NCBI GenBank assembly: GCA_965277405.1
Contig: OZ255726.1
Location: forward strand, 576,001-640,000
From: Gammaproteobacteria bacterium
GTDB lineage: Bacteria > Pseudomonadota > Gammaproteobacteria > G965277405
Length of the DNA stretch: 64,000 nucleotides
Reading direction: 5' to 3'
Of this stretch, positions 3,656 to 35,900 are shown one piece after another (positions within the stretch are counted from its first letter, which is position 1; every line of letters starts with the position of its first letter). Below the pieces are notes generated by a model, which was given only the letters and a program-made list of their open reading frames with translations, ran no database searches and was not told where the DNA came from. The position numbers were made by a program, and so were the translations under genes.

Positions 3656-3669
3656 CGTTATTCAGACCT

Positions 3670-5368: not shown

Positions 5369-5381
5369 AATACTACTCCTG

Positions 5382-6107: not shown

Positions 6108-6157
6108 CTAAGTAAGTGTTATCATTCAATTGAATTATATTTTGTGACCTTGGTTAG

Positions 6158-6444
6158 GAAACCTCTGATTAAGTCGCTGATGGAGCGAGTTTGCCTGCAA
6201 TTGCTGATGATTGCAAGGCGCAAACCGCTAAGCGCATGCCGTAGCATATACGCCAAGGGATGCTACACAGCAAGCACAGCAAACCGTTATATATTCAACA
6301 CAACGACGGGAAAAAACGCTGCGTTAACGTCGTTGCAGCACTTGGCAGCACCCACAAGACCACCAGTATTATCTGCGCACTACGCCTAGTTATCATCAGC
6401 GTTTTTTCTCCGTCTCGCCCATCATGGAATTAATCAGAGCTTCC
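6158..6444 (+). mobile_element. IS5-related MITE, copy 2, with TTAG target duplication
   Basis: TTAG|GAAACCTCTGATTAAG...ATTAATCAGAGCTTCC|TTAG. Confidence 0.92.
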
Positions 6445-6572
6445 TTAGACAGCTATCATTAATTACATTTTGTTATTCATAATAGTCGAAAAATCTAATT
6501 GTATAGGTATGGTGACATCAGATTTTATATTATTTCACACCACAATCATTCGGTAAGCAATTTTTTAACTGT

Positions 6573-8020: not shown

Positions 8021-8032
8021 TATTTTTTGCGA

Positions 8033-9427
8033 CTACTGTTGATACGCATCACATTCATATAATGCGAACCGCTGCTGCAACAGCGTTGACAGATCAGTCT
8101 GCAGTGGTATGCAACCCCCACTGAATTGCGCGGCAATAGCTGGCTGTAAAGCTGGATCATGTGGCGCATACACCACCAGCAAACCGCTGCTGTTACCAAC
8201 AGGGCTACCAAACCAAGCATCGTATTGGTCAATCACATCGTCAATAACCACAATATTTATGTTGCTATACCACGCTAATCGCGCTGCGTCTTGCCATCTT
8301 GCGGTAAAGATTATTTGCTGAGGATGCTCTGCTGCATATGATTGCAGCTGCGTTGCAATAGTCTTCCAGCCCACCACATCTGCAAACATATTTCTGCCCA
8401 ATGATACCGTTGGCTGCACGATAATCAGGTATTTACATAGCAGCGCAATACTAATTGACAATACCAAAGCCAGCCACCATAGCGTTTTTGAAAATCTATA
8501 GCGCAGTACATTTGCCAATGCTGCAGTACAAATGCTGGTAGTAGCCCAACCTAATAGTGGCAACAACATCAGTTGGTTGCCAAACGCAGCAACGACAATT
8601 GTCAAGCCAATGCCGACCACGCTGACATACAATATGCAGCGCAATCGTGCATGTCGGCGCAGCGCAAAAACTCCATACATCCCACCAAAAAACAATGCTG
8701 GACCAATCACTAATAACTGTACTGTCAGCGCAATTGCAGTGGCTGCTCCGATTCCAGCAACAACAGCTTGCTGATACCAATATTCAAAATATTGTGCGTC
8801 AACATACCAAGCCATACTCGGCACCAGCACGGCAACAGCAACCAGCACCCCCACCCCAAATGCAGCGCTGTTGTATTGTTTCCGATCAGCCACAACCATC
8901 GCCAGCAAAGGTGGCAGGAGCATAATCGCGGCAAAATGGCTGAGGAATGCAGCAGTCCAGACTATTGGCACGGCAACGCTGGCAACTATTGATCTGTGGC
9001 TTTGTTGGAGATGCAACAACACCAACAATAACATTGCCAGCGGTAGCATCAATCCTTCGCTGGATACAGTAATGCTTGCGAGTTGATTAAGCGGCACACT
9101 CCACCAAATCAACAATACCGTCCACGCAATTTTTACAGCTTTAAAAATATGCAGCGTTAGTATGAATAAAAGAAAACTTGTCAACGCAAAACCTGCAACA
9201 GGAAAAAAACGCAGCGCAATATCTGCCGTTGAGAGCTGCTGAACCCCCCACTGCAACCAGCCGCTGAGTGGGGCGTGATTAACATAGCCCCAAGCGACAA
9301 AGCGACCTGCTAAAGCAATTTGAGCTTCATGTATGCCAAGGTGAATACGGCTGGCAATCCATATATCGAGCAAGCCCCAAACACAACACACAATTCCTGC
9401 GAGTATCCATGGGCGCGTGCGCAACAT
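8033..9427 (-). CDS. ArnT/GT39-like membrane glycosyltransferase
   Basis: Multi-TM protein with HEA...WGYVNHAPL (DEA...GYFDHPP-like). Start at 9427 chosen from the TAATG overlap with the upstream stop. Confidence 0.75.
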   Translation of the reverse strand: MLRTRPWILAGIVCCVWGLLDIWIASRIHLGIHEAQIALAGRFVAWGYVNHAPLSGWLQWGVQQLSTADIALRFFPVAGFALTSFLLFILTLHIFKAVKIAWTVLLIWWSVPLNQLASITVSSEGLMLPLAMLLLVLLHLQQSHRSIVASVAVPIVWTAAFLSHFAAIMLLPPLLAMVVADRKQYNSAAFGVGVLVAVAVLVPSMAWYVDAQYFEYWYQQAVVAGIGAATAIALTVQLLVIGPALFFGGMYGVFALRRHARLRCILYVSVVGIGLTIVVAAFGNQLMLLPLLGWATTSICTAALANVLRYRFSKTLWWLALVLSISIALLCKYLIIVQPTVSLGRNMFADVVGWKTIATQLQSYAAEHPQQIIFTARWQDAARLAWYSNINIVVIDDVIDQYDAWFGSPVGNSSGLLVVYAPHDPALQPAIAAQFSGGCIPLQTDLSTLLQQRFALYECDAYQQ

Positions 9428-10533
9428 TACCAAACACGCTGAACATTTTGACCATCCTCTGCAAACACTTGACACGTCATCGGGTTAAAGCCAACTTGAA
9501 TGGAGTCACCTACTGTATATATCGTTCTTGGGCTATCGCGCACCCGTGCAGACAATGTCAGTTTTGCATCAATTTGTACTGTGATAAATTGATAATAGCC
9601 TATATCTTCAAACACCAACACCACTCCAGCAAACCAAACATTTGCATCGGTGTGTTTACTAGATTTAGCAGCAATACAAGTTTGTTCAAAAGGAATGGTC
9701 AAGACCACCCGCTCGTCAATGTTGTGACCGTTGTATACACTGGCTTTTAAGACGGTATCGTTATAACGGGTGTGGATTAACTTTTTTAACCGTCGTGTCA
9801 CCACCACAGGAATGCGGTTCAACTCACTATTCGCAACATAATTTGCAACAAAAAAATTGTTTGGCTGTTGTTGCAACTGTGAAATAGTACCAACCTGCTC
9901 AATGCCGCGTTGGTTGACAATAATTATCCGTTGTGCCAGCCCCAACACATCATCAATATGGCGTGCGGCGTAGACAACGGTCGTTTGTAGCAGCTTGTGC
10001 ACTGTGCTGATGACTTGGCGCAATGTAGCCTTATATACAGCTTCAAGCTGTTGCATCACATCGTCAATCAACAATACCTCAGGGCGCAGTATCAGCATCC
10101 TAGCAATGGCGACACGAATCACTTGCAGGTCAGTGAGCATTTCTGTACATGTATCACGTAAATTTTCAATGCCTATAGCTAATAGCACGGCATCAGCATC
10201 ATCAGATAATCGTTGGTTTTTGCCTATTTTGCCTAAACCCCATACAACATTTTCTACAACACTGCGTTCAGGCAATAATGGGTAATTTTGTTCTATCAAA
10301 CCTACGTTGCGATGCTGCGGCAACCAATGGGTAACGGCTTCGTCGCCAATAAATATATCACCGCTATCTGGCTGTTGTATTCCCGCTATTAGATGAAGTA
10401 GCGTAGTTTTGCCAGAATTTCTTGGGCCAACAATAGCAACACATTCGCCAGCTTTAATTTCGATATTGATGTTCCGTAACGCATGTATACGCGCCAGGTT
10501 TTTATTGAGATCAATGCAAACGAGTTGTTTCAT
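9427..10533 (-). CDS. MalK/PotA-like ABC ATP-binding protein with degenerate motifs
   Basis: Walker A GPRNSGKTT is present; signature is LTDLQ, Walker B is LLIDD and the H-loop is altered; C-terminal TOBE-like extension. Confidence 0.8.
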   Translation of the reverse strand: MKQLVCIDLNKNLARIHALRNINIEIKAGECVAIVGPRNSGKTTLLHLIAGIQQPDSGDIFIGDEAVTHWLPQHRNVGLIEQNYPLLPERSVVENVVWGLGKIGKNQRLSDDADAVLLAIGIENLRDTCTEMLTDLQVIRVAIARMLILRPEVLLIDDVMQQLEAVYKATLRQVISTVHKLLQTTVVYAARHIDDVLGLAQRIIIVNQRGIEQVGTISQLQQQPNNFFVANYVANSELNRIPVVVTRRLKKLIHTRYNDTVLKASVYNGHNIDERVVLTIPFEQTCIAAKSSKHTDANVWFAGVVLVFEDIGYYQFITVQIDAKLTLSARVRDSPRTIYTVGDSIQVGFNPMTCQVFAEDGQNVQRVW

Positions 10534-10535
10534 AA

Positions 10536-10900
10536 GGAATCTCTAAGGAACCTCTGATTAAGTCGCTGATGGAGCGAGTTTGCCTGTAATTGCTGATGAT
10601 TGCAAGGCGCAAACCGCATGCCGTAGCATATACGCCAAGGGATGCAACACAGCAAGTACCGCTTGTAGGCAAACCATCATATATTCAATAGAAGGCCGGG
10701 AAAAAACGCTGCGCTAACGTCGTTGCAGCACTTGATAATACCACCAGTATTATCTGCGCACTGCGTCTAGTTATCATCAGCGTTTTTTCTCCGTCTCGCC
10801 CATCATGGACTTAATCAGAGCTTCCATAATCAAGTCCGTAAAGAGCGATACGTAACAATACTACAAGTAGCGCGCTTGCGACAAGTTATTCAGAGCGTCC
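10536..10900. mobile_element. Older ~80-bp TIR element interrupted by MITE copy 3
   Basis: Removing copy 3 rebuilds GGAATCTCTAATCAAGTCC (IS left end is GGAATCTCTGATTAAGTCC); degenerate right end GTTATTCAGAGCGTCC ends at 10900. Confidence 0.6.
10547..10825 (+). mobile_element. IS5-related MITE, copy 3, nested in an older small element
   Basis: CTAA|GGAACCTCTGATTAAG...CTTAATCAGAGCTTCC|ATAA. Confidence 0.92.
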
Positions 10901-14837: not shown

Positions 14838-15954
14838 CTAAACTGTGAATATTTCCAGCCTTAGCAATGCATTCAGTAAATTCTGCATTGGCTTGCGAGT
14901 CAATAATAATCCCTGAGCCAATATGGTAGCGTAGTTGTTGTTGTCGAGCAATCAGTGTGCGGATGGCAACGTTAAACTGCATTTGCCGGTTTGGTGCAAT
15001 ATAGCCAATACTGCCAGTATACACCCCACGGGGTTGTTGCTCGTGTTCGTGGATAATCTCCATCGCCTTGTTTTTTGGTGCGCCGGTAATTGATGCGGCA
15101 GGGAATAACGCGGTAAAAATATCGACGACGCCAGCATCAGTCAATGTAGAAACAGTAGAAGTGAGTTGCCAGAGGCTTGGGTATTTTTCAAGCGTAAAGA
15201 GCGCGTCAACAACAACTCGATCTTGGCTGATCTTGCTGAGGTCGTTGCGTACCATGTCGACAATCATCACATTTTCCGCACGGTTTTTTATTGAGTGTTG
15301 CAGTTTATCTGCCAGATCCATGTCTTCTGCGTGGCAGCGGCCTCGTTTGCTGGTGCCTTTCATCGGTTGAGAATAAATATGTCTACCGTTGAGGCTGAAA
15401 AATAGTTCTGGCGAATTGCAACAAATTTGCATTGCTCCTGTGTCAATATAGGCGCTAAAATTTGCGGGGTGCTGGACTGCCAATTCCAAAAATATTTGCC
15501 ATATATCATGTTGCCGTTGGTGTTGCTGGGCCAGTAGGAAGGTGTAATTGATTTGATAACAGTCGCCTTGGAGGATTCGCTGCTGAATAGATGCAATCTG
15601 CTTGCAGTATTGTTGCTCAGTTACCGACGCACAGAATTCTGCTAATGCTGGGCGCTGTTGTATCGGCGGCAGTGCGTCCAGAATGATTGGTGGCGGATAC
15701 AGTGAAAACCAAAGTTTGGGGAAATCACTATCATGAACAACCAGGCGCGAGTCGAATGCTGGCGCCGCTTCATAACTGACCCAACCAACTGCATAGGCAT
15801 TGTGGCAGTTTACATAGTCCTCCACTGCAGTTAATGCTTTGGGTATATCTTTGCAATCGTCGCTGCTGACAATGTGCAATGCTGCGGTAAAAGCCCACCA
15901 TTTCTGTGTCGAATGATGATACAACACTGCACTATATGGCGCACTACTCTTCAT
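14827..15954 (-). CDS. pabB: Aminodeoxychorismate synthase component I
   Basis: GDCYQINY, SPELF, PMKGT, AENVMIVDMVRND, FPAASITGAPK, RGVYTGSIG and FNVAIRT motifs; the stop codon lies inside the mini-MITE TIR; start uncertain (15954 or 15969). Confidence 0.9.
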   Translation of the reverse strand: MKSSAPYSAVLYHHSTQKWWAFTAALHIVSSDDCKDIPKALTAVEDYVNCHNAYAVGWVSYEAAPAFDSRLVVHDSDFPKLWFSLYPPPIILDALPPIQQRPALAEFCASVTEQQYCKQIASIQQRILQGDCYQINYTFLLAQQHQRQHDIWQIFLELAVQHPANFSAYIDTGAMQICCNSPELFFSLNGRHIYSQPMKGTSKRGRCHAEDMDLADKLQHSIKNRAENVMIVDMVRNDLSKISQDRVVVDALFTLEKYPSLWQLTSTVSTLTDAGVVDIFTALFPAASITGAPKNKAMEIIHEHEQQPRGVYTGSIGYIAPNRQMQFNVAIRTLIARQQQLRYHIGSGIIIDSQANAEFTECIAKAGNIHSLGTL

Positions 15955-15959
15955 ATTGC

Positions 15960-16430
15960 ATGAACACAATTACAGCACTCTCTCAACACCTGACCGCCAC
16001 ACAAGCCATGTTGTGCACGGCAGAATCTTGCACTGGGGGGATGGTTGCCGCAGCTTGTACTGATGTTCCTGGCAGTTCTGCATGGTTTTGGGGTGGGTTT
16101 GTTGTGTATAACAACGCAGCAAAAATTCATTTAGGAATTGATCCAAATATTCTTTTAGAACATGGCGCTGTGAGTGATGCTTGCGTGCAGGCCCTTGCTG
16201 ATGCTGCACAAATTAGCAGCAATGCGCATGTCTGTGTTGCAATTAGCGGCATTGCTGGTCCTGATGGAGGCTCTGTGATCAAGCCGGTGGGCACTGTCTA
16301 TTTCGGTTGGACGATTGGCACGCAAATACATAGTGAGCATCAGCGTTTTTCAGGCAACAGGTATCAGGTGCGTCAACAAGCAACACATTTTGCAATCGCA
16401 AAGACCCTAGCATTATTGCTAGAGCATTGA
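15960..16430 (+). CDS. pncC: CinA C-terminal domain protein / nicotinamide-nucleotide amidohydrolase
   Basis: TAESCTGG, PGSS, HGAVS, SGIAGPDGG and KPVGTV motifs; start placed at MNTITAL. Confidence 0.88.
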   Translation: MNTITALSQHLTATQAMLCTAESCTGGMVAAACTDVPGSSAWFWGGFVVYNNAAKIHLGIDPNILLEHGAVSDACVQALADAAQISSNAHVCVAISGIAGPDGGSVIKPVGTVYFGWTIGTQIHSEHQRFSGNRYQVRQQATHFAIAKTLALLLEH

Positions 16431-16476
16431 CCCAGCACTGCTAATTTGCTGAAGCTGCGACTGAATCAGAATTTTT

Positions 16477-17574
16477 CTAATGTTCTTCGAGCTCACCGCC
16501 GTAACCGATTGGCTCATACATCAAAAAGCTCACTTCAATATTGTTTAGCTGATCAATTGTTAATAACTCTAATGTTACAGAAAGCGGCAATGTGCTATTG
16601 CCAGCGACGACTTTTTCTGGCAATGACTCCGCATATTGCTGTGGAACAATCAGTTTTGGGGTTTCGTCTGCTGCTATTTTTAAGAACAATAACGGTAGCG
16701 TTTGTGCAAACGCAGCATCGTTGCGCAACTGCCACTGTATCGTTAATAAATTCCCGTCTTGGCTGGTTATGAATTCATCGATATGCAGGGTTTCCTTATC
16801 TATAAATAATGGCAATTCACATTGAATAATCGTGCAGAGAATTTCATAACTATGCCGATACGCAGCGACGCTTGCATATGTCACCCGCGTTGCCAGCATT
16901 CCTTGAATAAGGAGTAACACGACTAATGCAACTCCACTAATAATAAATGGAATTTTTGAAAATTTTTTATGTGTGTTGATAGGGGAAGATGGCGTTGAGT
17001 TTTTCTTGCTTGATCTAAAGTCAAACCTGCTGCGCCCTTTGAGATTTTTTGCAGTAGTTTGCGCAAGATCAGCAACTACTTGTTCGTCATCTGTATATTC
17101 CTGTGCGGGGTTGTTTGCTACTATAGGTGACTCACCCATATGGAGCGATTGATGTTGTTGGCGGTCCTGTGGATCGATAGTAAATGTGCTGGTTGGCTTT
17201 GGATGGCGTGAGGAGCTGGTTGGTGTTGGCGAATTCTCAAACTCTGTAGCGTTATCAATGCTACCTTTTGGTTGCGCTGCAGCTGGTTGTAAGTTTAGCA
17301 GCGGTTCTTCAGGTTTTTGTTCATTAGCCGCTGCATAACTAAATTGCAACTTATCATCAAAACGTTGCCCAGCGTATTCGGCGCTTTCCACAGGTGCATC
17401 TTGCTGCTTTTTACTCTTCCAGAATCCTTTGAGTAAATGTGACGGCGCGTAGAATACTTCTTGGCAATTGCCGCATTGAATATAACCATCAGCCGCTTCT
17501 AAGTGCTGTTGTTGTAATGGCAGTTTTGCCGAGCACTTTGGGCATAATGCGACAAAAGATTTAGGCTGTTCCAT
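16477..17574 (-). CDS. Zinc-ribbon and DUF3426-type membrane protein
   Basis: CPKC...QCGNCQEVF zinc ribbon, disordered linker, TM, C.IIQC.LP and LRNDAAFAQTLP.L; typical position downstream of accBC. Confidence 0.8.
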   Translation of the reverse strand: MEQPKSFVALCPKCSAKLPLQQQHLEAADGYIQCGNCQEVFYAPSHLLKGFWKSKKQQDAPVESAEYAGQRFDDKLQFSYAAANEQKPEEPLLNLQPAAAQPKGSIDNATEFENSPTPTSSSRHPKPTSTFTIDPQDRQQHQSLHMGESPIVANNPAQEYTDDEQVVADLAQTTAKNLKGRSRFDFRSSKKNSTPSSPINTHKKFSKIPFIISGVALVVLLLIQGMLATRVTYASVAAYRHSYEILCTIIQCELPLFIDKETLHIDEFITSQDGNLLTIQWQLRNDAAFAQTLPLLFLKIAADETPKLIVPQQYAESLPEKVVAGNSTLPLSVTLELLTIDQLNNIEVSFLMYEPIGYGGELEEH

Positions 17575-17743
17575 ACAGTAGTTGCTATAGTAGTTAATAG
17601 ATGGGTTGAGTTGTATTCAGCCAATCATACCCTTGTTGCAATATTTGTGGTTGTGTTTTTGTGATTCCTATTATCGCAACACGACTGCTACTATAACTCA
17701 ATACTTAACTCAATACTTTGATGGTTGGCGCGAGTTGTGCTAA

Positions 17744-18972
17744 GGAATCTCTGATTAAGTCCCAAACAACAGCAATATCAGCTACAAAGATATACAATGG
17801 TGAATCTATTTGAATATTTGAATAAGCGGATAATCTTATGAAACAAACAACTTTTGCCAGTGCTGCATACGACCACAAGAAAGTAACAACGAAACCAAAA
17901 AAAATTCTTGCAGTCGATGGACAAATTAGCTCCATGGCAACGGTTGTTAGCGTTAATAGAACCGCATTATCCCAAGAAAGGGAATGGCCCGCCCACCAAT
18001 TAATATGCAGACCATGTTACGCGTTTATTGTTTACAGCAATGGTACAACTTATCAGACCCAGGGGTAGAAGAAGCACTATATGACATGGAAAGCATGCGG
18101 CGTTTTGCCCATATAGAGCTGATAGACGATGCCATCCCTGATGAAACTACCATCTTGAACTTCCGCAGGATCATAGAAAAGCATCAACTCAGCGTCAAGA
18201 TACTTGCTGTGGTGAATGAGTATTGTATGGAAAATAATATAACAATCTCACAAGGGTCGATGGTTGATGCCACGATCATCCATGCACCATCATCTACGAA
18301 GAATAAAGAGAAAGCCCGTGATCCTGAAATGCATCAAACAAGGAAAGGCAATCAGTGGTATTTTGGCATGAAGATTCATATAGGAACTGACGCTAATAGC
18401 AATATGATTCATAGCGCGACAGTGACAGCCGCGAATGAAGCGGACATCAATGAACTCCCCAAATTGCTGCGTGAAACAGATAAGGTTATCTTTGCCGATG
18501 CAGGATATACGAGCGACAGTTATAAACGCGGCTCGCGTCACCTTGGGATAGATTGGCGCGTGAATGATAAACGTAAACCAAAGCAGCAAATGAGCACCTC
18601 GCAGCGCCAACGCAATACACAGAACTCTAAGGTGCGCGCCCGGATTGAGCACTGTTTTCGGGTAATCAAATGTCAGTTTGGTTATAAGAAAGCTCGCTAC
18701 AAAGGACTAGAAAAGAATCGAGTACAAGTATTTTCTTTGCTGGCATTGACGAACTTATACATGCTGCGCGGACGACTAACAGGATAGAACCGCCCAAAAT
18801 TCAAGAAAAACAGTAAAAAACAATAAAAACAATAAAAACAGTAAAAAACAGTAAAACAGCAACACGAAGATCAGCGAAATGATCAAATATTGACCATTGA
18901 AAATTATTGCTATTATTTTTTTGGAGTATATGCGAGTTATTGGAGTATATGAGCGTCTTAATCAGAGCTTCC
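17744..18972 (+). mobile_element. IS5-family (IS5 subgroup) insertion sequence, 1229 bp, with CTAA target duplication
   Basis: CTAA|GGAATCTCTGATTAAG...CTTAATCAGAGCTTCC|CTAA enclosing a DDE transposase. Confidence 0.95.
17838..18787 (+). pseudogene. IS5 transposase with two frameshifts
   Basis: MKQTTFASAAYDHKK / KFLQSMDKLAPWQRLLALIEPHYPK / RPPINMQTMLR...LQQWYNLSDP..EEALYD...VDATII...KGNQWYFGMKIHIG...ADAGY...RARIEHCF. Frame changes occur in the A run near 17897-17904 and the C run near 17988-17990. Confidence 0.85.
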
Positions 18973-20924: not shown

Positions 20925-23900
20925 CTAATCTTGATGATATTTAATTACTAATTGCCATTGACTAAAGGTGTCATCGTGACTGTCTGCATAGTCAGTATTG
21001 TCATCTGCTACAAAATCACCTGCTGCAAACAAATCCTTCACTGTTATTCTCCAATGACCTTGTATGCTTTCACCAAGAAATGCATGCACAGCTATGGGTT
21101 GCTGATAACCTAGGTTAGCTTGAGTGTGTCCATTTCCTGCAGGATACGCCGGATACGATGTTCCTGCAGGCGATGTTAAAGATATTTCTATGTCTTGCAG
21201 CGCTGTTGTCGTTAGTTTAACAAATAGGTTGAGGTGGTCGATTTTGCCAGTTGCTGCAACGTATAGTTCCTTGCTAACACCATCGCTATTTTTATTCGGT
21301 ACAAGCATGGGTACAAAAGTATGATTTTTGGTAATTGCCTCAATTCTGTCATGGGTAATCAACTGCGAATAGCTCTTCGCCATCGCTAATGCTGCATCTA
21401 CATTGACCAAACCAAAGCCATACCAATCGCTGTAATTAAGACCTGCCGCATTAGTAATCCAACCCCGACTAAATTGATAAGCGCCGCTACCTGGAATATC
21501 TGTAGTCACTGTGTAGTCGGCATCAATTATCGTTGCTGTTTTCGCCAATATATACCGCACATCCCAAATAGTTAATGCTGGATGTTGCGAAAGTAACAAC
21601 GCAACCGCGCCACTGACAATTGCAGCCGCTGCGCGCGTACCGTGGAAAGTATTGGTGTAATTGCATGTTGGATCGTCATGGTGGAATTGGTTTGCTAAAA
21701 CGTTACTTGCTGCATTATCTGCTAACTCATGGTTACTATAACCCCTGCTACAGGAAGTTACATCTGTGGTGAACATTCCAGGTTCTCCAGCTAACATTCC
21801 AGGTTCTCCAGCTGATGGACTACCTTGCTCGCCACCAAAACCACTCACCCAAATAGCCCCGGCTGCAGCATAGCTCGCGCGTTTCCCGAAGGCGTTGACT
21901 GCGCCAACAGTGATGATCGGTAAGATGTCTTCCTTATCAAAACCAGCCAAGCCACAGCTCGTACCTATTACATTCGCTTGGCTGCATGCGTCACCATCAC
22001 CAATATATGAATCGCCTGCAGGTTTAATAAAAATGACTCCTTTGCCGTTTCTGCCATCTTGAATCCTGCGCATGATTATTGCGTTGCTGCCAATTGCTGC
22101 GGTAGCTGGCGTGCCGATGTGATCAAGGCGACTAGCTAGCTGGTCGCCTAAATACACAATATCGGCTTCAACTGCTGGGGAATCAGTGGCACTGGGGTCG
22201 CCATCACCAACACTATATTGTAAATACGTGGCATTGCTATTGACACCAGCAGCCATATTGTTAAAGCCAAGCAATTTGGCTTTGGGTGCGACACCCAAGC
22301 CACCCATACCATTATCTGCCATGGCAATCAAGCCAGCTATTGCTGTACCATGGTCGCCGTCACTACCCCTTGGGCTGGGATCGGTTGTTCCTGTCGCGGC
22401 ATTAGGTTGCATAAATGACCCCGTTGCAAAAGCATATCCTTGCCGAGGATCAATATTGTCAGCTAAATCAGGGTGGGTTATTTGCAAGCCAGTATCAACC
22501 ACGCTCACCAACGTTCCTTGACCGAGGCAGCCATCAGTGCGCCATGCACGTTGTAAGTTTAAATGGATGCTACTATCCATTTTGCTAGCATCCATGCCGG
22601 TGGCAATTTGACCTTGTTGCCTACCATCTAAGTACCATTGATATTTTTCTAATGGATTGCTATCTGGTAACGATACAAGCGTGTCTGTATCACAATTTGA
22701 ATTAACCGCTGTCATAAAAATAGTTGCTGTACTAACGGGGAAGTCCACCACATTAGATACATAACCCGAAACCACATATTCTGCTTTGCTTGCTACTATT
22801 GTTGGTGACCCTTGGATTGCACAGCTGTCGTTTGCCACAACTAGTGTCAAGCCAGCAGGTAGCGGCGGTGCTATGCTGCAACGAACAATTTCAACAGTGT
22901 TGACAAATTGCCATTGCTGCTGATTTTGGTATGTCAACATCGTCTGGGCAATTTTATCATCCATTTGCGGTAGCGCATAGATGGCGGTGATGAGGACGTC
23001 TGCACTGCTATCACCAGCGGAATTTGACCCAGTAATAACGTAGTTGCTAGTTTGTGTTGCACTAACATTGTTGGGACTGCCATCAATTTGGCAGGTGCTG
23101 CGTCCATTGCCACCTACAGCTATATTCAGGGCTAAACCTGGCGGCAGCGGTGGTGTGGGGGTACAACTGGTCACATCACCACCATTGTTCTCAATTATTA
23201 TATGCTGAGGAATTCGATCACTGACTACAAACACCATTGCGGTATTGTTATATAATAATGCTGGTGCTTGATCATTGGCTGTTTGATCGTTGGGTGTTTG
23301 ATCATTGACAGTGATGCTATCGCGTAATGCTATAGACCTTCGCGACCTTGACCTTCGTTGCGGCTCTATTCGTGCACTTCTAGCACTTCGAGCACTCCGT
23401 TGAGGATTTGAAGCATAAGAACGTCCAGAAAACGGATTCTCATATATTTCGATGAGTACCGTTGCGCGACTTTCGCCGCCGCTATTGGACCCTTTTATTG
23501 TATACATTATCTCGTATTCTTGAGGTACCGTTGGAGTTCCTGTTATCTGACACGTTGCTTTACCTAAGAAGGTTGCAACTGCAAGCTGCAAACCACCAGC
23601 TAGCTGTGGTGCAATATCACAACTTATTACATCCCCACCAAAGTTTAAAAAGTTCACAGCTTGTATGGGTATACCTATTATGTAATACTGATCTGCTAAT
23701 CTGCCCAAAATTGGAGGGATATCATAGTTCACCGTGATGCTGATATCTGCGCTGCTAGTGCCGCCGCTATTCGACGCTGTGATTGTATACGTTATCGGGT
23801 CTTCTTGCAGGGTGGTTGGGGTTCCTGTTATCTGGCAACTAGCTCCATCTGGCGTTTTCTTAAGTGTTAAACCATCAGGCCATGCTGCGCTATTATCCCC

Positions 23901-26900
23901 GCCTACTTCGCAACTTGTCACCGCACCGCCTGTGTTGCCAAAATCAACAGCTGCTATCGCTGTGTCTATTGTGTAATGCTGCGGGCTTGGGCTGGCTAGC
24001 TCTGGGATATTATCGTTCACCGTGATGCTGATAGCTGCGCTGCTAGTGCCGCCGCTATTCGTCGCGGTGATGGTATACGTTATCGGTTCTTCTTGCAGGG
24101 TGGTTGGTATTCCTGTTAGCTGACAAGTTGCTGGATCTGCGATGGTGGCAAGCTGCAAACCACCAATTAGCTGTGGCGCAACATCACAGCTGGTTACCGC
24201 ACCGCCTGTGTTGCCAAAATCAACAGCTGCTATCGGCGTGTTGATGGTGTATATCCGCGGGCTTGGATTTACTAGCTCTGGGATATTATCGTTCACCGTG
24301 ATGCTGATATCGGCGCTGCTATCGCCACCGCTGTTCGTCGCTGTGATGGTATACGTTATAGCGTCTTCTTGCAGGGTGGTTGGTATTCCTGTTAGCTGAC
24401 AAGTTGCTGGATCTGCTATGGTGGCAAGCTGCAAACCACCAACTAGCGGCGGTACAACACCACAACTTGTTACCGCACCGCCTGTGTTGCCAAAATCAAC
24501 AGCTGCTATCGCTGTGTCTATTGTGTAATGCTGCGGACTGGGACTTACTAACGCTGGGATATTATCGTTCACCGTGATGCTGATAGCTGCGCTGCTAGTG
24601 CCGCCGCTATTCGTCGCGGTGATGGTATACGTTATCGGTTCTTCTTGCAGTACGGTTGGAGTGCCTGTTAGCTGACAAGTTGCTGGATCTGCTATGGTGG
24701 CAAGCTGCAAACCACCAACTAGCGGCGGTACAACGCCACAGCTGGTTACCGCTCCGCCTGTGTTGCCAAAATCAACAGCTGCTATCGCTGTGTCTATTGT
24801 GTAATGCTGCGGACTGGGACTTACTAACGCTGGGATATTATCATTCACCGTGATGCTGATAGCTGCGCTGCTAGTGCCGCCGCTATTCGACGCTGTGATT
24901 GTATACGTTGCCTCTTCTTCATGCAGTGCGGTTGGGGTTCCTGTTATTTGGCAACTAGCTCCGTCTGGCGTTTTCTTAAGTGTTAAACCATCAGGCCATG
25001 CTGCGCTATTATCCCCGCCTACTTCGCAACTTGTCACCGCACCACCTGTGTTGCCAAAATCAACAGCTGCTATCGCTGTGTTGATGGTGTATATCCGCGG
25101 GCTGGGGGTTGCTAGCGCTGGGATATTATCGTTCACCGTGATGCTGATATCTGCGCTGCTAGTGCCGCCGCTATTCGACGCTGTTATTGTATACGTTGCC
25201 TCTTCTTCATGCAGTGCGGTTGGGGTTCCTGTTATCTGGCAACTAGCTCCGTCTGGCGTTTTCTTAAGTGTTAAACCATCAGGCCATGCTGCGCTATTAT
25301 CCCCGCCTACTTCGCAACTTGTCACCGCACCGCCTGTGTTGCTAAAGTTCACAGTTGGTATCGCTGTGTCTATTGTGTAATGCTGCGGGCTGGGGGTTGC
25401 TAGCGCTGGGATATTATCGTTCACCGTGATGCTGATATCTGCGCTGCTAGTGCCGCCGCTATTCGTCGCGGTGATGGTATACGTTATAGCGTCTTCTTGC
25501 AGTGTGGTTGGTATTCCTGTTAGCTGACAAGTTGCTGGATCTGCTATGGTGGCAAGCTGCAAACCACTAGGTAGCGGTGTTGAAACATCACAGCTTGTTA
25601 CCGCACCGCCTGTGTTGCCAAAATCAACAGCTGCTATCGGCGTGTTGATGGTGTATATCCGCGGGCTTGGATTTACTAGCGCTGGGATATTATCATTCAC
25701 CGTGATGCTGATATCTGCGCTGCTAGTGCCGCCGCTATTCGTCGCTGTTATTGTATACGTTGCCTCTTCTTCATGCAGTGCGGTTGGGGTTCCTGTTATC
25801 TGGCAACTAGCTCCGTCTGTCGTTTTCTTAAGTGTTAAACCATCAGGCCATGCTGCGCTATTATCCCCGCCTACTTCGCAGCTTGTCACCGCACCGCCTG
25901 TGTTGCCAAAATCAACAGCTGCTATCGCTGTGTCTATTGTGTAATGCTGCGGACTGGGACTTACTAACGCTGGGATATTATCATTCACCGTGATGCTGAT
26001 ATCGGCGCTGCTAGTGCCGCCGCTATTCGTCGCTGTTATTGTATACGTTGCCTCTTCTTCATGCAGTGCGGTTGGGGTTCCTGTTATCTGGCAACTAGCT
26101 CCGTCTGGCGTTTTCTTAAGTGTTAAACCATCAGGCCATGCTGCGCTATTATCCCCGCCTACTTCGCAACTTGTCACCGCACCGCCTGTGTTGCTAAAGT
26201 TCACAGTTGGTATCGCTGTGTCTATTGTGTAATGCTGCGGACTGGGACTTACTAACGCTGGGATATTATCGTTCACCGTGATGCTGATATCTGCGCTGCT
26301 AGTGCCGCCGCTATTCGTCGCGGTGATGGTATACGTTATAGCGTCTTCTTGCAGTGTGGTTGGTATTCCTGTTAGCTGACAAGTTGCTGGATCTGCTATG
26401 GTGGCAAGCTGCAAACCACTAGGTAGCGGTGCTGAAACATTACAGCTTGTCACCGCACCGCCTGTGTTGCTAAAATCAACAGCTGCTATCGCTGTGTTGA
26501 TGGTGTATATCCGCGGGCTTGGATTTACTAGCGCTGGGATATTATCATTCACCGTGATGCTGATATCGGCGCTGCTAGTGCCGCCGCTATTCGTCGCGGT
26601 GATGGTATACGTTATCGGATCTTCTTGCAGTACGATTGGAGTGCCTGTTAGCTGACAAGTTGCTGGATCTGCTATGGTGGCAAGCTGCAAACCACCAACT
26701 AGCGGCGGTACAACGCCACAGCTTGTCACCGCACCGCCTGTGTTGCCAAAATCAACAGCTGCTATCGGCGTGTTGATGGTGTATATCCGCGGGCTTGGGG
26801 TTGCTAGCTCTGGGATATTATCGTTCACCGTGATGCTGATATCGGCGCTGCTATCGCCGCCGCTATTCGTCGCTGTTATTGTATACGTTATCGAGTCTTC

Positions 26901-29900
26901 TTGCAGGGTGGTTGGCATACCTGTTAGCTGACAAGTTGCTGGATCTGCTATGGTGGCAAGCTGCAAACCACCAATTAGCTGTGGCGCAACATCACAGCTT
27001 GTCACCGCACCGCCTGTGTTGCCAAAATCAACAGCTGCTATCGGTGTGTTGATGGTGTATATCCGCGGGCTTGGATTTACTAGCTCTGGGATATTATCGT
27101 TCACCGTGATGCTGATATCTGCGCTGCTATCGCCACCGCTATTCGTCGCTGTGATGGTATACGTTATAGCGTCTTCTTGCAGGGTGGTTGGTATTCCTGT
27201 TAGCTGACAAGTTGCTGGATCTGCTATGGTGGCAAGCTGCAAGTCACCAACTAGCTGCGGTGAAACGTCACAACTTGTTACATCCCCACCAAAGTTGACA
27301 AAGTTCACAGTTGGTATCGCTGTGTTGATGGTGAATAGCTGCGGGGGTGGGCTTATTAAATTTGGCTGAGCATCGTTCACCGTGATGCTTATCGCTGCGA
27401 TGTCAGTACCGCCGCTATTCGTCGCTGTTATTGTATACGTTATCGGGTCTTCTTGCAGGGTGATTGGTATTCCTGTTATCTGGCAACTAGCTCCGTCTGG
27501 CGTTTTCTTAAGTGTTAAACCATCAGGCCATGCTGCGCTATTATCCCCGCCTACTTCGCAGCTTGTCACCGCACCACCTGTGTTGCTAAAGTTCACAGTT
27601 GGTATCGCTGTGTCTATTGTGTAATGCTGCGGACTGGGACTTACTAACTCTGGGATATTATCGTTCACCGTGATGCTGATATCTGCGCTGCTAGTGCCGC
27701 CGCTATTCGTCGCTGTTATTGTATACGTTGTCGCGTCTTCATGCAGTGCGGTTGGGGTTCCTGTTATCTGGCAACTAGCTCCGTCTGGCGTTTTCTTAAG
27801 TGTTAAACCATCAGGCCATGCTGCGCTATTATCCCCGCCTACTTCGCAGCTTGTCACCGCACCACCTGTGTTGCTAAAGTTCACAGCTGGTATCGCTGTG
27901 TCTATTGTGTAATGCTGCGGACTGGGACTTACTAACTCTGGGATATTATCGTTCACCGTTATGCTGATATCGGCGCTGCTAGTGCCGCCGCTATTCGACG
28001 CTGTGATTGTATACGTTGCCTCTTCTTCATGCAGTGCGGTTGGGGTTCCTGTTAGCTGGCAACTAGCTCCGTCTGTCGTTTTCTTAAGTGTTAAACCATC
28101 AGGCCATGCTGCGCTATTATCCCCGCCTACTTCGCAGCTTGTCACCGCACCACCTGTGTTGCCAAAATCAACAGCTGCTATCGCTGTGTCTATTGTGTAA
28201 TGCTGCGGACTGGGACTTACTAACGCTGGGATATTATCATTCACCGTGATGGTTATCGCTGCGCTGCTAGTGCCGCCGCTATTCGTCGCTGTGATTGTAT
28301 ACGTTGCCTCTTCTTCATGCAGTGCGGTTGGGGTTCCTGTTATCTGGCAACTAGCTCCGTCTGTCGTTTTCTTAAGTGTTAAACCATCAGGCCATGCTGC
28401 GCTATTATCCCCGCCTACTTCGCAGCTTGTCACCGCACCACCTGTGTTGCCAAAATCAACAGCTGCTATCGCTGTGTCTATTGTGTAATGCTGCGGGCTG
28501 GGGGTTGCTAGCTCTGGGATATTATCGTTCACCGTGATGCTGATATCTGCGCTGCTAGTGCCGCCGCTATTCGTCGCGGTGATGGTATACGTTATAGCGT
28601 CTTCTTGCAGTGTGGTTGGTATTCCTGTTAGCTGACAAGTTGCTGGATCTGCTATGGTGGCAAGCTGCAAACCACCAATTAGCTGTGGCGCAACATCACA
28701 GCTGGTTACCGCACCGCCTGCGTTGTCAAAATCAACAGCTGCTATCGGCGTGTTGATGGTGTATATCCGCGGGTTTGGGTTTACTAGCTCTGGGATATTA
28801 TCGTTCACCGTGATGCTGATAGCTGCGCGGCTAGTGCCGCCGCTATTCGTCGCGGTGATGGTATACGTTATCGGTTCTTCTTGCAGTGCGGTTGGTATTC
28901 CTGTTAGCTGACAAGTTGCTGGATCTGCTATGGTGGCAAGCTGCAAACCACCAACTAGCGGTGGTGCAACACCACAGCTTGTTACCGCACCGCCTGTGTT
29001 GCCAAAATCAACAGCTGCTATCGGCGTGTTGATGGTGTATATCCGCGGGTTTGGGTTTACTAGCTCTGGGATATTATCGTTCACCGTGATGCTGATAGCT
29101 GCGCGGCTAGTGCCGCCGCTATTCGTCGCGGTGATGGTATACGTTATCGGTTCTTCTTGCAGTGCGGTTGGTATTCCTGTTAGCTGACAAGTTGCTGGAT
29201 CTGCTATGGTGGCAAGCTGCAAACCACCAACTAGCGGTGGTGCAACACCACAGCTTGTTACCGCACCGCCTGTGTTGCCAAAATCAACAGCTGCTATCGC
29301 TGTGTTGATGGTGTATATCCGCGGGCTTGGATTTACTAGCGCAGGGATATTATCGTTCACCGTGATGCTGATATCTGCGCTGCTATCGCCACCGCTGTTC
29401 GTCGCTGTGATGGTATACGTTATCGGGTCTTCTTGCAGCGTGGTTGGTATTCCTGTTAGCTGACAAGTTGCTGGATCTGCTATGGTGGCAAGCTGCAAAC
29501 CACCAATTAGCTGTGGAGCAACATCACAGCTTGTCACCGCACCGCCTGCGTTGCCAAAATCAACAGCTGCTATCGGCGTGTTGATGGTGTATATCCGCGG
29601 GCTTGGATTTACTAGCGCTGGGATATTATCGTTCACCGTGATGCTGATAGCTGCGCGGCTAGTGCCGCCGCTATTCGTCGCGGTGATGGTATACGTTATC
29701 GGTTCTTCTTGCAGTGCGGTTGGGGTTCCTGTTAGCTGGCAACTAGCTCCGTCTGGCGTTTTCTTAAGTGTTAAACCATCAGGCCATGCTGCGCTATTAT
29801 CCCCGCCTACTTCGCAACTTGTCACCGCACCACCTGTGTTGCCAAAATCAACAGCTGCTATCGCTGTGTCTATTGTGTAATGCTGCGGACTGGGACTTAC

Positions 29901-32900
29901 TAACGCTGGGATATTATCATTCACCGTGATGCTGATATCTGCGCTGCTAGTGCCGCCGCTATTCGTCGCTGTTATTGTATACGTTGCCTCTTCTTCATGC
30001 AGTGCGGTTGGGGTTCCTGTTATCTGGCAACTAGCTCCGTCTGTCGTTTTCTTAAGTGTTAAACCATCAGGCCATGCTGCGCTATTATCCCCGCCTACTT
30101 CGCAGCTTGTCACCGCACCGCCTGTGTTGCCAAAATCAACAGCTGCTATCGCTGTGTCTATTGTGTAATGCTGCGGACTGGGACTTACTAACGCTGGGAT
30201 ATTATCATTCACAGTGATGCTGATATCTGCGCTGCTATCGCCACCGCTATTAGACGCTGTGATGGTATACGTTGCCTCTTCTTCATGCAGTGCGGTTGGG
30301 GTTCCTGTTATCTGGCAACTAGCTCCGTCTGGCGTTTTCTTAAGTGTTAAACCATCAGGCCATGCTGCGCTATTATCCCCGCCTACTTCGCAACTTGTCA
30401 CCGCACCACCTGTGTTGCCAAAATCAACAGCTGCTATCGCTGTGTCTATTGTGTAATGCTGCGGACTGGGACTTACTAACGCTGGGATATTATCGTTCAC
30501 CGTGATGCTGATATCTGCGTTGCTAGTGCCGCCGCTATTCGACGCTGTTATTGTATACGTTGCCTCTTCTTCATGCAGTGCGGTTGGCGTTCCTGTTATT
30601 TGGCAACTAGCTCCGTCTGGCGTTTTCTTAAGTGTTAAACCATCAGGCCATGCTGCGCTATTATCCCCGCCTACTTCGCAACTTGTCACCGCACCGCCTG
30701 TGTTGCCAAAATCAACAGCTGCTATCGCTGTGTTGATGGTGTATATCCGCGGGCTGGGGGTTGCTAGCTCTGGGATATTATCATTCACCGTGATGCTGAT
30801 ATCTGCGCTGCTAGTGCCGCCGCTATTCGACGCTGTTATTGTATACGTTGCCTCTTCTTCATGCAGTGCGGTTGGGGTTCCTGTTATCTGGCAACTAGCT
30901 CCGTCTGGCGTTTTCTTAAGTGTTAAACCATCAGGCCATGCTGCGCTATTATCCCCGCCTACTTCGCAACTTGTCACCGCACCGCCTGTGTTGCCAAAAT
31001 CAACAGCTGCTATCGGCGTGTTGATGGTGTATATCCGCGGGCTGGGGGTTGCTAGCGCTGGGATATTATCGTTCACCGTGATGCTGATATCTGCGCTGCT
31101 AGTGCCGCCGCTATTCGTCGCGGTGATGGTATACGTTATCGGATCTTCTTGCAGTACGGTTGGGGTTCCTGTTATCTGGCAACTAGCTCCGTCTGGCGTT
31201 TTCTTAAGTGTTAAACCATCAGGCCATGCTGCGCTATTATCCCCGCCTACTTCGCAACTTGTCACCGCACCGCCTGTGTTGCCAAAATCAACAGCTGCTA
31301 TCGCTGTGTCTATTGTGTAATGCTGCGGACTGGGACTTACTAACGCTGGGATATTATCGTTCACCGTGATGCTGATATCTGCGCTGCTAGTGCCGCCGCT
31401 ATTCGTCGCGGTGATGGTATACGTTATCGGTTCTTCTTGCAGGGTGGTTGGTATTCCTGTTAGCTGACAAGTTGCTGGATCTGCTATGGTGGCAAGCTGC
31501 AAACCACTAGGTAGCGGTGCTGAAACATCACAGCTTGTTACCGCACCGCCTGTGTTGCCAAAATCAACAGCTGCTATCGGCGTGTTGATGGTGTATATCA
31601 GCGGGCTGGGGGTTGTTGCTAGCTCTGGGATATTATCGTTCACCGTGATGCTGATATCTGCGCTGCTAGTGCCGCCGCTATTCGTCGCGGTGATGGTATA
31701 CGTTATAGCGTCTTCTTGCAGCGTGGTTGGTATTCCTGTTAGCTGACAAGTTGCTGGATCTGCTATGGTGGCAAGCTGCAAACCACCAACTAGCGGCGGT
31801 ACAACGCCACAGCTTGTTACCGCACCGCCTGTGTTGCCAAAATCAACAGCTGCTATCGGCGTGTTGATGGTGTATATCCGCGGGCTGGGGGTTGCTAGCG
31901 CTGGGATATTATCGTTCACCGTGATGCTGATATCTGCGCTGCTAGTGCCGCCGCTATTCGTCGCTGTTATTGTATACGTTATCGCGTCTTCTTGCAGTGC
32001 CGTTGGCATACCTGTTAGCTGACAAGTTGCTGTATCATCTACTATGGTGGCAACTGCCAGCTGCAAACCACCAATTAGCTGTGGAGCAACATCACAGCTT
32101 GTCACCGCACCGCCTGCGTTGCCAAAATCAACAGCTGCTATCGCTGTGTTGATGGTGTATATCCGCGGGCTTGGGGTTGCTAGCGCTGGGATATTATCGT
32201 TCACCGTGATGCTGATAGCTGCGCTGCTAGTGCCGCCGCTATTCGTCGCTGTTATTGTATACGTTATCGCGTCTTCTTGCAGTGCCGTTGGCATACCTGT
32301 TAGCTGACAAGTTGCTGTATCATCTACTATGGTGGCAACTGCCAGCTGCAAACCACCAATTAGCTGTGGAGCAACATCACAGCTTGTCACCGCACCGCCT
32401 GCGTTGCCAAAATCAACAGCTGCTATCGCTGTGTTGATGGTGTATATCCGCGGGCTTGGGGTTGCTAGCGCTGGGATATTATCGTTCACCGTGATGCTGA
32501 TAGCTGCGCTGCTAGCACCGCCGCTATTCGTCGCTGTTATTGTATACGTTATCGGTTCTTCTTGCAGTACGGTTGGAGTGCCTGTTAGCTGACAAGTTGC
32601 TGGATCTGCTATGGTGGCAAGCTGCAAGTCACTAGGTAGCGGTGTTGAAACATCACAGCTTGTTACCGCACCGCCTGTGTTGCCAAAATCAACAGCTGCT
32701 ATCGGCGTGTTGATGGTGTATATCCGCGGGCTTGGGGTTGCTAGCTCTGGGATATTATCGTTCACCGTGATGCTGATAGCTGCGCTGCTAGTGCCGCCGC
32801 TATTCGTCGCGGTGATGGTATACGTTATCGGTTCTTCTTGCAGGGTGGTTGGCGTACCTGTTAGCTGGCAACTAGCTCCGTCTGGCGTTTTCTTAAGTGT

Positions 32901-35900
32901 TAAACCATCAGGCCATGCTGCGCTATTATCCCCGCCTACTTCGCAACTTGTCACCGCACCGCCTGTGTTGCCAAAATCAACAGCTGCTATCGCTGTGTCT
33001 ATTGTGTAATGCTGCGGACTGGGACTTACTAACGCTGGGATATTATCATTCACCGTGATGGTTATCGCTGCGTTGCTAGTGCCGCCGCTATTCGTCGCGG
33101 TGATGGTATACGTTATCGGTTCTTCTTGCAGTACGGTTGGAGTGCCTGTTAGCTGACAAGTTGCTGGATCTGCTATGGTGGCAAGCTGCAAACCACCAAC
33201 TAGCGGCGGTACAACGCCACAGCTTGTCACCGCACCGCCTGTGTTGCCAAAATCAACAGCTGCTATCGCTGTGTTGATGGTGTATATCCGCGGGCTTGGA
33301 TTTACTAGCTCTGGGATATTATCGTTCACCGTGATGCTGATATCTGCGCTGCTAGTGCCGCCGCTATTCGTCGCGGTGATGGTATACGTTATCGGTTCTT
33401 CTTGCAGTGTGGTTGGTATTCCTGTTAGCTGACAAGTTGCTGGATCTGCTATGGTGGCAAGCTGCAAACCACCAACTAGCGGCGGTACAACGCCACAGCT
33501 TGTTACCGCACCGCCTGTGTTGCCAAAATCAACAGCTGCTATCGGCGTGTTGATGGTGTATATCCGCGGGCTTGGATTTACTAGCTCTGGAATATTATCG
33601 TTCACCGTGATGGTTATCGCTGCGTTGCTAGTGCCGCCGCTATTCGTCGCTGTTATTGTATGTGTTATCGGATCTTCTTGCAGTACGGTTGGAGTGCCTG
33701 TTAGCTGACAAGTTGCTGGATCTGCTATGGTGGCAAGCTGCAAACCACTAGGTAGCGGTGTTGAAACATCACAGCTTGTCACGCCACCGCCTGTGTTGCC
33801 AAAATCAACAGTTGGTATCACTGTGTTGATGGTGAATGACTGCGGGCTGGGGCTGACTAGCTCTGGGATATTATCGTTCACCGTGATGCTGATAGCTGCG
33901 CTGCTAGTGCCGCCGCTATTCGTCGCGGTGATGGTATACGTTATAGCGTCTTCTTGCAGCGTGGTTGGTATTCCTGTTAGCTGACAAGTTGCTGGATCTG
34001 CTATGTTGACAAGCTGCAAACCACCAATTAGCTGTGGAGCAACATCACAGCTTGTCACCGCACCGCCTGCGTTGCCAAAATCAACAGCTGCTATCGGCGT
34101 GTTGATGGTGTATATCCGCGGGCTTGGATTTACTAGCTCTGGAATATTATCGTTCACCGTGATGGTTATCACTGCGTTGCTAGTGCCGCCGCTATTCGTC
34201 GCTGTTATTGTATACGTTATCGGTTCTTCTTGCAGTGCGGTTGGCGTACCTGTTAGCTGACAAGTTGCTGGATCTGCTATGGTGGCAAGCTGCAAACCAC
34301 TAGGTAGCGGTGCTGAAACATCACAGCTTGTTACCGCACCGCCTGCGTTGCCAAAATCAACAGCTGCTATCGGTGTGTTGATGGTGTATATCCGCGGGCT
34401 GGGGCTGACTAGCTCTGGGATATTATCGTTCACCGTGATGCTGATATCTGCGCGGCTAGTGCCGCCGCTATTCGTCGCGGTGATGGTATACGTTATAGCG
34501 TCTTCTTGCAGTGTGGTTGGAGTTCCTGTTAGTTGACAAGTTGCTGGATCTGCTATGGTGGCAAGCTGCAAACCACTAGGTAGCGGTGTTGAAACATCAC
34601 AGCTTGTTACCGCACCGCCTGTGTTGCCAAAATCAACAGCTGCTATCGGCGTGTTGATGGTGTATATCCGCGGGCTTGGGGTTGCTAGCGCTGGGATATT
34701 ATCGTTCACCGTGATGCTGATATCGGCGCTGCTAGTGCCGCCGCTATTCGACGCTGTTATTGTATACGTTGCCTCTTCTTCATGCAGTGCGGTTGGGGTT
34801 CCTGTTATCTGGCAACTAGCTCCGTCTGTCGTTTTCTTAAGTGTTAAACCATCAGGCCATGCTGCGCTATTATCCCCGCCTACTTCGCAACTTGTCACCG
34901 CACCACCTGTGTTGCCAAAATCAACAGCTGCTATCGCTGTGTTGATGGTGTATATCCGCGGGCTTGGATTTACTAGCTCTGGGATATTATCGTTCACCGT
35001 GATGCTGATATCTGCGCTGCTAGTGCCGCCGCTATTCGTCGCGGTGATGGTATACGTTATCGGTTCTTCTTGCAGTGCGGTTGGTATTCCTGTTAGCTGA
35101 CAAGTTGCTGGATCTGCTACGGTGGCAAGCTGCAAACCACCAACTAGCTGTGGCGCAACATCACAGCTTGTTACCGCTCCGCCTGTGTTGCCAAAATCAA
35201 CAGCTGCTATCGGCGTGTTGATGGTGTATATCCGCGGGCTGGGGGTTGCTAGCGCTGGGATATTATCGTTCACCGTGATGCTGATATCGGCGCTGCTAGT
35301 GCCGCCGCTATTCGTCGCTGTTATTGTATACGTTGCCTCTTCTTCATGCAGTGCGGTTGGGGTTCCTGTTAGCTGGCAACTAGCTCCGTCTGGCGTTTTC
35401 TTAAGTGTTAAACCATCAGGCCATGCTGCGCTATTATCCCCGCCTACTTCGCAACTTGTCACCGCACCGCCTGTGTTGCCAAAATCAACAGCTGCTATCG
35501 CTGTGTCTATTGTGTAATGCTGCGGACTGGGACTTACTAACGCTGGGATATTATCATTCACCGTGATGCTGATAGCTGCGCTGCTAGTGCCGCCGCTATT
35601 CGACGCTGTGATTGTATACGTTGCCTCTTCTTCATGCAGTGCGGTTGGGGTTCCTGTTATTTGGCAACTAGCTCCGTCTGGCGTTTTCTTAAGTGTTAAA
35701 CCATCAGGCCATGCTGCGCTATTATCCCCGCCTACTTCGCAGCTTGTCACCGCACCACCTGTGTTGCCAAAATCAACAGCTGCTATCGCTGTGTTGATGG
35801 TGTATATCCGCGGGCTTGGATTTACTAGCTCTGGGATATTATCGTTCACCGTGATGCTGATATCTGCGCTGCTAGTGCCGCCGCTATTCGTCGCGGTGAT

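Follow-up and report, generated by a model that had tools for sequence, protein, structure and literature searches.

The gene for a giant putative lipoprotein and its degenerate S8 head

The window analysed here is a 64,000-nucleotide stretch of a gammaproteobacterial genome (2.17 Mb in one contig), and it contains an open reading frame (ORF) of 9566 amino acids (20925..49625, minus strand) that alone accounts for 1.3% of the genome. The gene encodes a lipoprotein-type signal, an array of He_PIG repeats, a basic linker, two immunoglobulin (Ig)-like domains, a pseudo-S8 domain and a P-domain, the last two of which form the head studied here, at the 3' end of the gene (last 584 amino acids, 20928..22679, minus strand). 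Head residue 1 is residue 8983 of the protein, so the residue numbers D9044, H9092 and R9331 of the initial annotation, which had been made from the letters and their translations, are correct, as are all of its coordinates. That annotation had called the head a pseudo-protease of the S8 type, with the nucleophile Ser replaced by Arg (CGC at 21633-21635); the present analysis bears this out, and finds the same state conserved in diverged paralogues.

Two Pfam families were matched in the head: Peptidase_S8 (PF00082; 91.1 bits against a cut-off of 21.8, E 9.9e-26; envelope 21453..22523, minus strand, with the ASP-like fold running from about 22679) and, directly after the catalytic domain, the proprotein-convertase P-domain (P_proprotein, PF01483; 37.7 bits against a cut-off of 21; 21015..21239, minus strand), which is also seen in the structural model. 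Among solved structures, the nearest is that of ASP, a serine protease of Aeromonas sobria (3hjr/3wqb; E 6e-54), with 550 residues aligned in a match that spans residues 174-723 of P0001. An AlphaFold model of the head, based on 58 aligned sequences, has a predicted local distance difference test (pLDDT) score of 85.7 and a predicted template-modelling score (pTM) of 0.92; its C-terminal domain is beta-rich. In a Foldseek search with this model ASP again came first (3hjr/3wqb, TMq 0.79-0.80; 3hjr E 4e-48), followed by furin and Kex2 (0.67-0.70). These S8B enzymes share the catalytic plus P-domain fold with the head, but they are eukaryotic and active, have a prodomain, and are only about 20% identical to it. 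ASP, the best match in both sequence and fold, resembles the head further in having the S8 domain followed by the P-domain and no N-terminal propeptide. By homology, the head is an ASP/kexin-type S8 domain with its P-domain.

Pfam matched no propeptide family in the last 757 amino acids of the protein, only the S8 and P-domains, and what lies upstream consists of He_PIG domains. The initial annotation had likewise seen no propeptide, and had listed this beside the active-site changes. The absence stands, but it is no part of the degeneration, since ASP-type enzymes and the intact paralogue in this genome (described below) have no propeptide either; it is a family trait and not decay.

The active site is where the head departs from its relatives (all positions below are on the minus strand). 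The triad Asp (VVDTG, 22494..22496; D9044, head D62) and His (DHGT, 22350..22352; H9092, head H110) are retained, in columns that are 100% Asp and 100% His among 144 relatives, and pair in the ASP alignment with VVDDG and AHGT. At the nucleophile position, the minus strand reads CGC from 21635 to 21633 within FHGTRAAAAIVSG, which places Arg (R9331, head R349) in a column that is 100% Ser and sets GTR against the GTS of ASP. Where active S8 peptidases have GTSxAxP the head has GTRAAAA, the Pro of the motif (97% of the column) being replaced by Ala as well (A9335, head A353, 21621..21623). The oxyanion Asn has become Asp (D9205, head D223, 22011..22013), AGD being aligned with the AGN of ASP in a column that is 98% Asn; among the proprotein convertases, PC2 also has Asp here. 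The strand that pairs with substrate is remodelled (22143..22157), with VYLGD for FNQSY(G) in the alignment of relatives: the head has DIVYLGDQ against a consensus of DIFNQSYG, and has lost the NxSxG pattern whose N176, S178 and G180 are near-invariant. In the model a helix begins at residue 348, as the Ser helix should.

Since the columns are 100% Ser and 98% Asn in the 144 relatives, the changes at these two positions are true departures and not alignment noise. The head thus has the homology, the Asp and the His of an active S8 peptidase and lacks its nucleophile Ser and its oxyanion Asn. The retained Asp and His, the AGD and the altered VYLGD strand had all been pointed out in the initial annotation, together with an otherwise intact S8 and P-domain fold, for which the Pfam matches, the quality of the model and the conserved positions kept (counted below) now speak.

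Because the nucleophile is missing, we infer that the head does not hydrolyse peptide bonds; subtilases are not known to tolerate loss of the Ser. It could still be an enzyme if another nucleophile or chemistry were used, such as Thr9330 or a water activated by His and Asp, and the Asp and His are indeed retained in both of the head types described below. Thr9330, however, corresponds to the usual Thr of GTS, a residue conserved at 97% in relatives whose Ser is intact, and is no replacement nucleophile; moreover the oxyanion Asn, the Pro of the motif and the usual substrate strand have been lost together. We regard continued catalysis by other means as very improbable.

At the opposite end of the protein, direct reading of the translation gives a putative N-terminal signal, MWKHIAVCFLLLLTSC (49578..49625, minus strand), with a lipobox-like LLTSC. 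The lipobox pattern is L-x-x-C with an invariant Cys, which this signal fits, in which case Cys 16 would become the first residue and carry the lipid; a paralogue in the same genome (L011 2..10342) has the same N-terminus. The He_PIG (PF05345) Ig-like repeat array (23436..49538, minus strand, boundaries approximate) contains 87 motifs of the ISITVN type, which mostly recur every 92 or 96 residues. The stretch from the linker to the head is made up of two diverged Ig-like (He_PIG) domains (22680..23324, minus strand), recognised by family match.

Copies, relatives and origin of the head

Five copies of the head are present in the genome, counting the one studied here; of the other four, two are 99% identical to it, a third 79% and the last 47%. 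Four of the five are on He_PIG-repeat proteins. The fifth (47%) is a lipoprotein paralogue of active type, 678 amino acids long (L009 8407..10443, minus strand), with a lipobox-like ITAC, an S8 domain and a P-domain, no propeptide, and the full D/H/N/S set (VVDNG, SHGT, AGN, NGTSAATP). AGD and HGTRAAAA occur in all three dead-type copies that were aligned, namely the present head, the 99% copy L002 and the 79% copy; the remaining 99% copy is L003 with L006. The further giant He_PIG genes with a dead head lie at L011 2..10342 and at L011 10716..15227 with 15513..17999 (both minus strand), and at L010 2..2845 with 2871..10892 (plus strand). One of these three crosses the contig start, and about 44 head residues are unaccounted for at the junction. 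Insertion of a miniature inverted-repeat transposable element was considered as an explanation for the break that precedes the 1503-amino-acid ORF of L011 and was rejected, the 285-nucleotide gap there being repeat-coding DNA; it has 165 matches, and those listed fall inside the giant genes. Heads at least 99.5% identical and with the same motifs also occur in other assemblies, and a 4894-amino-acid version (P0154) is known from another assembly.

The initial annotation had noted that CGC and AGC (Ser) differ by one base and had called for a check of the reads. Made on contigs, the check came out in favour of Arg: no difference is listed at 21633-21635 or 22011-22013 in the covering contigs of three public runs, one of the three being a diverged variant with 17 other differences. 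This run evidence consists of contigs, not raw reads, from one study, possibly of the source sample. The Arg codon is CGC in the present head and CGA in the 79% paralogue, and the 47% paralogue has TCG, which encodes Ser. Since the contigs of three runs agree and the 79% paralogue keeps the Arg as CGA, the CGC at 21633-21635 is no base-call error; a sequencing error at 21635 is ruled out by these contigs and this codon together with the motifs of the paralogues. A one-base change from AGC to CGC is only one possible history, because the path from TCG to Arg needs at least two base changes.

A protein search of 1.84 billion representatives returned 11,974 matches at E up to 0.001. The closest were the two head types of this same species, then its active paralogue (47%), and then proteins of at most 45% identity. 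Among the best 150 of these matches, 140 are D/H/N/S, and D/H/D/R is found in just two clusters, both from this species. P0050 has AGD with the Ser kept; P0013 and P0079 are poorly aligned at the Asn column, and P0043 and P0137 are without the N-terminal Asp region. The multi-domain protein P0119 has one Lys and two Ser in the Ser column.

Two metagenomic proteins among these matches have lost the Ser in other ways. P0036 (3332 amino acids) has degenerate ASP-like S8 stretches in tandem, at least five of them, with Glu or Asp in the Ser column (GTE/GSE/GTD) and Gly in the Asp column, and is a separate, unrelated pseudoprotease architecture. P0130 (692 amino acids) is a stand-alone ASP-like protein of the D/H/D/G type, whose AGD and FHGTGAAAAM (Ser to Gly) form a motif strikingly like that of the head.

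A midpoint-rooted FastTree phylogeny of 148 rows was made, leaving out P0036, P0119 and one match that spanned less than 400 columns. In it the D/H/D/R heads group in a single clade (support 1.0), whose sister is the D/H/N/S paralogue of the same genome (0.984) and which is nested among D/H/N/S proteins. From this placement the pseudo state is derived and of single origin, having arisen in this lineage after duplication of a resident protease. P0130 lies in another clade of the tree and therefore represents an independent loss of the Ser. In 40 genomes of the same class just two weak partial matches were found, each in its own genome; a contig scan with P0005 as query gave no relative; and a 'longer' protein search found, above 37% identity, only the heads of this species. 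The dead ASP-type head has so far been seen in one species only.

The architecture itself has wider company. Two metagenomic proteins, P0059 (2809 amino acids) and P0072 (2792 amino acids), show the same order of He_PIG, Peptidase_S8 and C-terminal P-domain; unlike the dead head, to which they are 35-36% identical, their heads have D/H/N/S intact, and these proteins are a third of the length of the present one or less. Since He_PIG stalks with intact S8 and P-domain heads exist in metagenomes, the stalk-plus-head architecture is not new, and what is new is the dead head.

ASP is a free, secreted and active enzyme with Ser336 and with orf2 encoded just downstream (PMC5638518). The head, by contrast, is the end of a putative lipoprotein of 9566 amino acids, with Arg, Asp and a changed strand in place of the catalytic features, and gaps in the alignment show its loops to be shorter in the part that forms the occluding region of ASP. 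The comparison with ASP also brought out a disulfide-type Cys pattern shared with the active paralogue of this genome.

Pseudoproteases of the S8 family are already known. In Clostridioides difficile the active CspB stands beside the pseudoproteases CspA and CspC, the latter with G485, T170 and D105 for Ser, His and Asp (PMC6636752). Like the head, CspA and CspC are subtilase folds with a degenerate triad that accompany an active paralogue, and their role is non-catalytic. The Csp proteins differ in having a prodomain and a jelly-roll insert, in being soluble spore proteins and in belonging to a different S8 branch; compared with CspC, the head keeps the His, has Arg rather than Gly for the Ser, lacks a prodomain and is joined to a giant fibre of repeats. 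No Csp structure is among the 44 Foldseek matches listed for the head model (ranks to 50). The head is thus a variant of a known phenomenon, from another S8 branch. Keyword searches of the open-access literature, whose scope was the articles and not their supplements, found no ASP-type pseudoprotease and no pseudoprotease-tipped giant lipoprotein, which is weak evidence of absence. One paper considered, 10.1101/2024.09.23.613229, deals with homologues of toxin B subunits and has no bearing here.

Maintenance or decay of the dead fold

We think it on balance probable that the head is a dead but fold-preserved copy of the resident ASP/kexin-type protease, kept as the non-catalytic tip of a giant lipid-anchored fibre. 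Its foundations are demonstrated at the level of sequence: the homology, the losses (Ser, oxyanion Asn, motif Pro and substrate strand), the conservation of these losses in two head types and the descent from active enzymes.

Several observations weigh against this explanation. By the Nei-Gojobori method (NG86), comparison of the two head types gives an overall ratio of nonsynonymous to synonymous divergence (dN/dS) of 0.91 (dN 0.149, dS 0.164), a value that relaxed constraint would also give. When the 644-column alignment is cut into six consecutive windows of 100 columns and a seventh of 44, the ratios are 0.31, 0.92, 0.97, 1.06, 0.62, 1.15 and 1.23. Conservation of the Arg is sampled over two head types only, at a dS of 0.16 and within one species, and the searches made turned up no D/H/D/R head that was intermediate or more distant. 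Two of the four giant genes open in mid-repeat after a frame break and are without a signal peptide; these may be interrupted, or misassembled in the long repeats. Lastly, the canonical peptide-binding cleft may not survive, because the substrate-pairing strand is remodelled and residues 183-194 of the head form an insertion modelled at pLDDT below 50. The 'substrate trap' offered by the initial annotation as one use of the head is weakened for the same reasons, above all because the strand that is altered is the one that normally pairs with substrate.

Part of this would also fit a decaying relic, an inactive head without function that drifts and persists at the end of a long gene, or as a folded C-terminus that the protein needs. 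The overall ratio of 0.91, the five of seven windows at 0.92 or more, the confinement of D/H/D/R to one species and the two genes that look interrupted upstream are all in keeping with it. The pattern of differences between the two head types speaks against it. They differ at 235 nucleotides and contain no stop codon, where random placement of the differences gives a mean of 7.7 and leaves none in only 4 of 5000 neutral simulations. Amino-acid differences avoid the positions conserved in the family (94 positions at which at least 85% of the 144 relatives agree), affecting 4 of these 94 against 120 of the other 490 (Fisher p 1.5e-6). Of the 94 the head still has 82, matching the 83 kept by the active paralogue (12 versus 11 changed), its model is confident, and the Arg has been kept through a synonymous change. 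We consider the relic rather unlikely.

Five changes shared by the two pseudo types are missing from the active paralogue: V114I, N223D, A301G, S349R and P353A. The altered NxSxG strand adds to these, and the loss is aimed at the catalytic apparatus and not scattered over the fold. From the same comparisons, selection on the open frame and the intact fold core can be taken as demonstrated. The examination of orthologues that the initial annotation had proposed was carried out on paralogues and gave a divided answer, the Arg being kept via a synonymous codon but dN/dS lying at about 0.9. We read the whole as a conserved core with fast-changing surface positions, diversifying and relaxed selection at the surface being inseparable in these data.

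Surroundings, linker and possible roles of the head

Downstream of the giant gene are accB and accC, identified from sequence, and upstream, on the opposite strand, is an ABC-transporter operon read as potABCD from its translations. Farther neighbours (isocitrate/isopropylmalate dehydrogenase, a chorismate-binding enzyme, GlnE and others) are housekeeping genes, and no partner, secretion or chaperone gene adjoins the giant gene. Between accBC and a DUF3426 gene lies a 267-amino-acid ORF whose translation resembles an IS5-type transposase (17984..18787, plus strand).

This neighbourhood bears on the idea that the export or folding route of ASP-type proteins recognises the dead fold, so that the head would help the fibre to fold or to reach the surface and would have no external ligand; the route might involve an external chaperone, the type II secretion pathway or a translocator of surface lipoproteins. 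ASP folds with the help of an external chaperone, ORF2, which is encoded just downstream and whose C-terminus lies at active-site residue 336 (PMC5638518); structure 3wqb shows ASP together with this chaperone. The head shares with ASP the lack of a propeptide but not the downstream orf2, accB and accC being there and no chaperone-like gene. In this genome it is the active paralogue that is followed by an orphan exported ORF, of 228 amino acids, overlapping it by 14 nucleotides (L009 7734..8420, minus strand; the pair at about 1800736-1803442 of contig G000:C1). The language-model neighbours of this ORF include the ORF_2_N cluster (score 0.90), by which it is possibly an external chaperone of the ORF2 type. 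Other searches with it were blank: there was no match to the ORF2 chain among solved structures, no Pfam family at E 0.1 or even E 10, and nothing but itself in a word-index homologue search, and PF18492, the ORF_2_N model, had no match across this genome. Its single-sequence model is unusable (pLDDT 37), and a predicted complex of the head with the 228-amino-acid protein scored 0.00, which counts neither for nor against binding. The genome also holds two secretins, which together with the outer-membrane proteins described next fit the idea of such a route. With accB and accC after the giant gene and these blanks for the ORF, we judge it unlikely that the head serves as a handle for biogenesis.

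Three outer-membrane proteins of the SlipAM/Slam type (PF04575) are encoded at G000:C1:349605-350480, 1369869-1370744 and 1378842-1379717, and this type was found in 0 of 14 control genomes. Lipoproteins might be displayed on the cell surface by way of them.

The basic linker NPQRSARSARSARIEPQRRSRSRRSIAL (RSARSARSARIEPQRRSRSRRS; RSARSARSAR...RRSRSRRS; 23325..23408, minus strand) has 9 Arg in 28 residues and is the sole strongly basic patch of a protein with an isoelectric point (pI) of 4.05. All three genes of the 99% type keep it and the 79%-type gene lacks it; it may be a dibasic processing site or a binding site. If a kexin-like lipoprotein protease cut it, the head would be freed along with the two Ig-like domains; or else the acidic head, with a net charge of -26, might grip the linker of neighbouring fibres in a cross-linked mesh. 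The RR and RSRR motifs of the linker and the acidity of the protein suit such schemes, and an intact paralogue is present that might do the cutting. In a study of a Bordetella adhesin, a subtilisin-type protease was reportedly involved in adhesin release. ASP has been assayed on Boc-Glu-Lys-Lys-MCA, which offers a Lys-Lys dibasic pair (PMC5638518). The absence of the linker from the 79%-type gene argues against release or cross-linking as the purpose of the head, and we find it quite unlikely.

The explanation we prefer, a dead protease fold kept as a fibre tip, would run as follows. A resident lipoprotein protease would have been duplicated within the lineage, the intact version surviving as the 678-amino-acid paralogue, while the duplicate lost catalysis, kept its fold and came to be placed at the C-terminal, membrane-distal end of lipid-anchored He_PIG-repeat fibres. 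There it may have been retained as a recognition or binding module with fast-changing surface positions; such a binding role is plausible. The Arg would stand at the N-terminus of the active-site helix, beside the His and the new Asp, where it might form a salt bridge that closes the site, or else a site that binds anions or carboxylates; the pairing of Arg and Asp in the former active site is conjecture. The active paralogue might, more speculatively, process the fibres at the dibasic linker.

A bolder extension, to which we give little credence, makes the Arg/Asp site a new ligand site, a latch for peptide C-termini or for an acidic or anionic surface polymer, within a system that cuts and holds. 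The active enzyme would make or trim the ligands, or the Arg-rich linker, and the dead heads of the four fibres would capture them in a product-like complex, comparable to that of the ORF2 C-terminus in ASP, with the fast-evolving surfaces of the heads setting the specificity for targets.

Subtilase-derived pseudoenzymes have been described from very few bacterial systems, and the case studied is that of the Csp germination proteins. Here one 2.17-Mb genome holds the whole series, an intact lipoprotein protease and four dead, fibre-mounted derivatives, as a compact natural experiment in which a protease fold has probably been turned to non-catalytic use. For annotation, it means that such genes are not to be labelled active S8 peptidases. 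For the biology of this uncultured lineage, the head domain may serve as a handle for finding what its very large surface proteins recognise.

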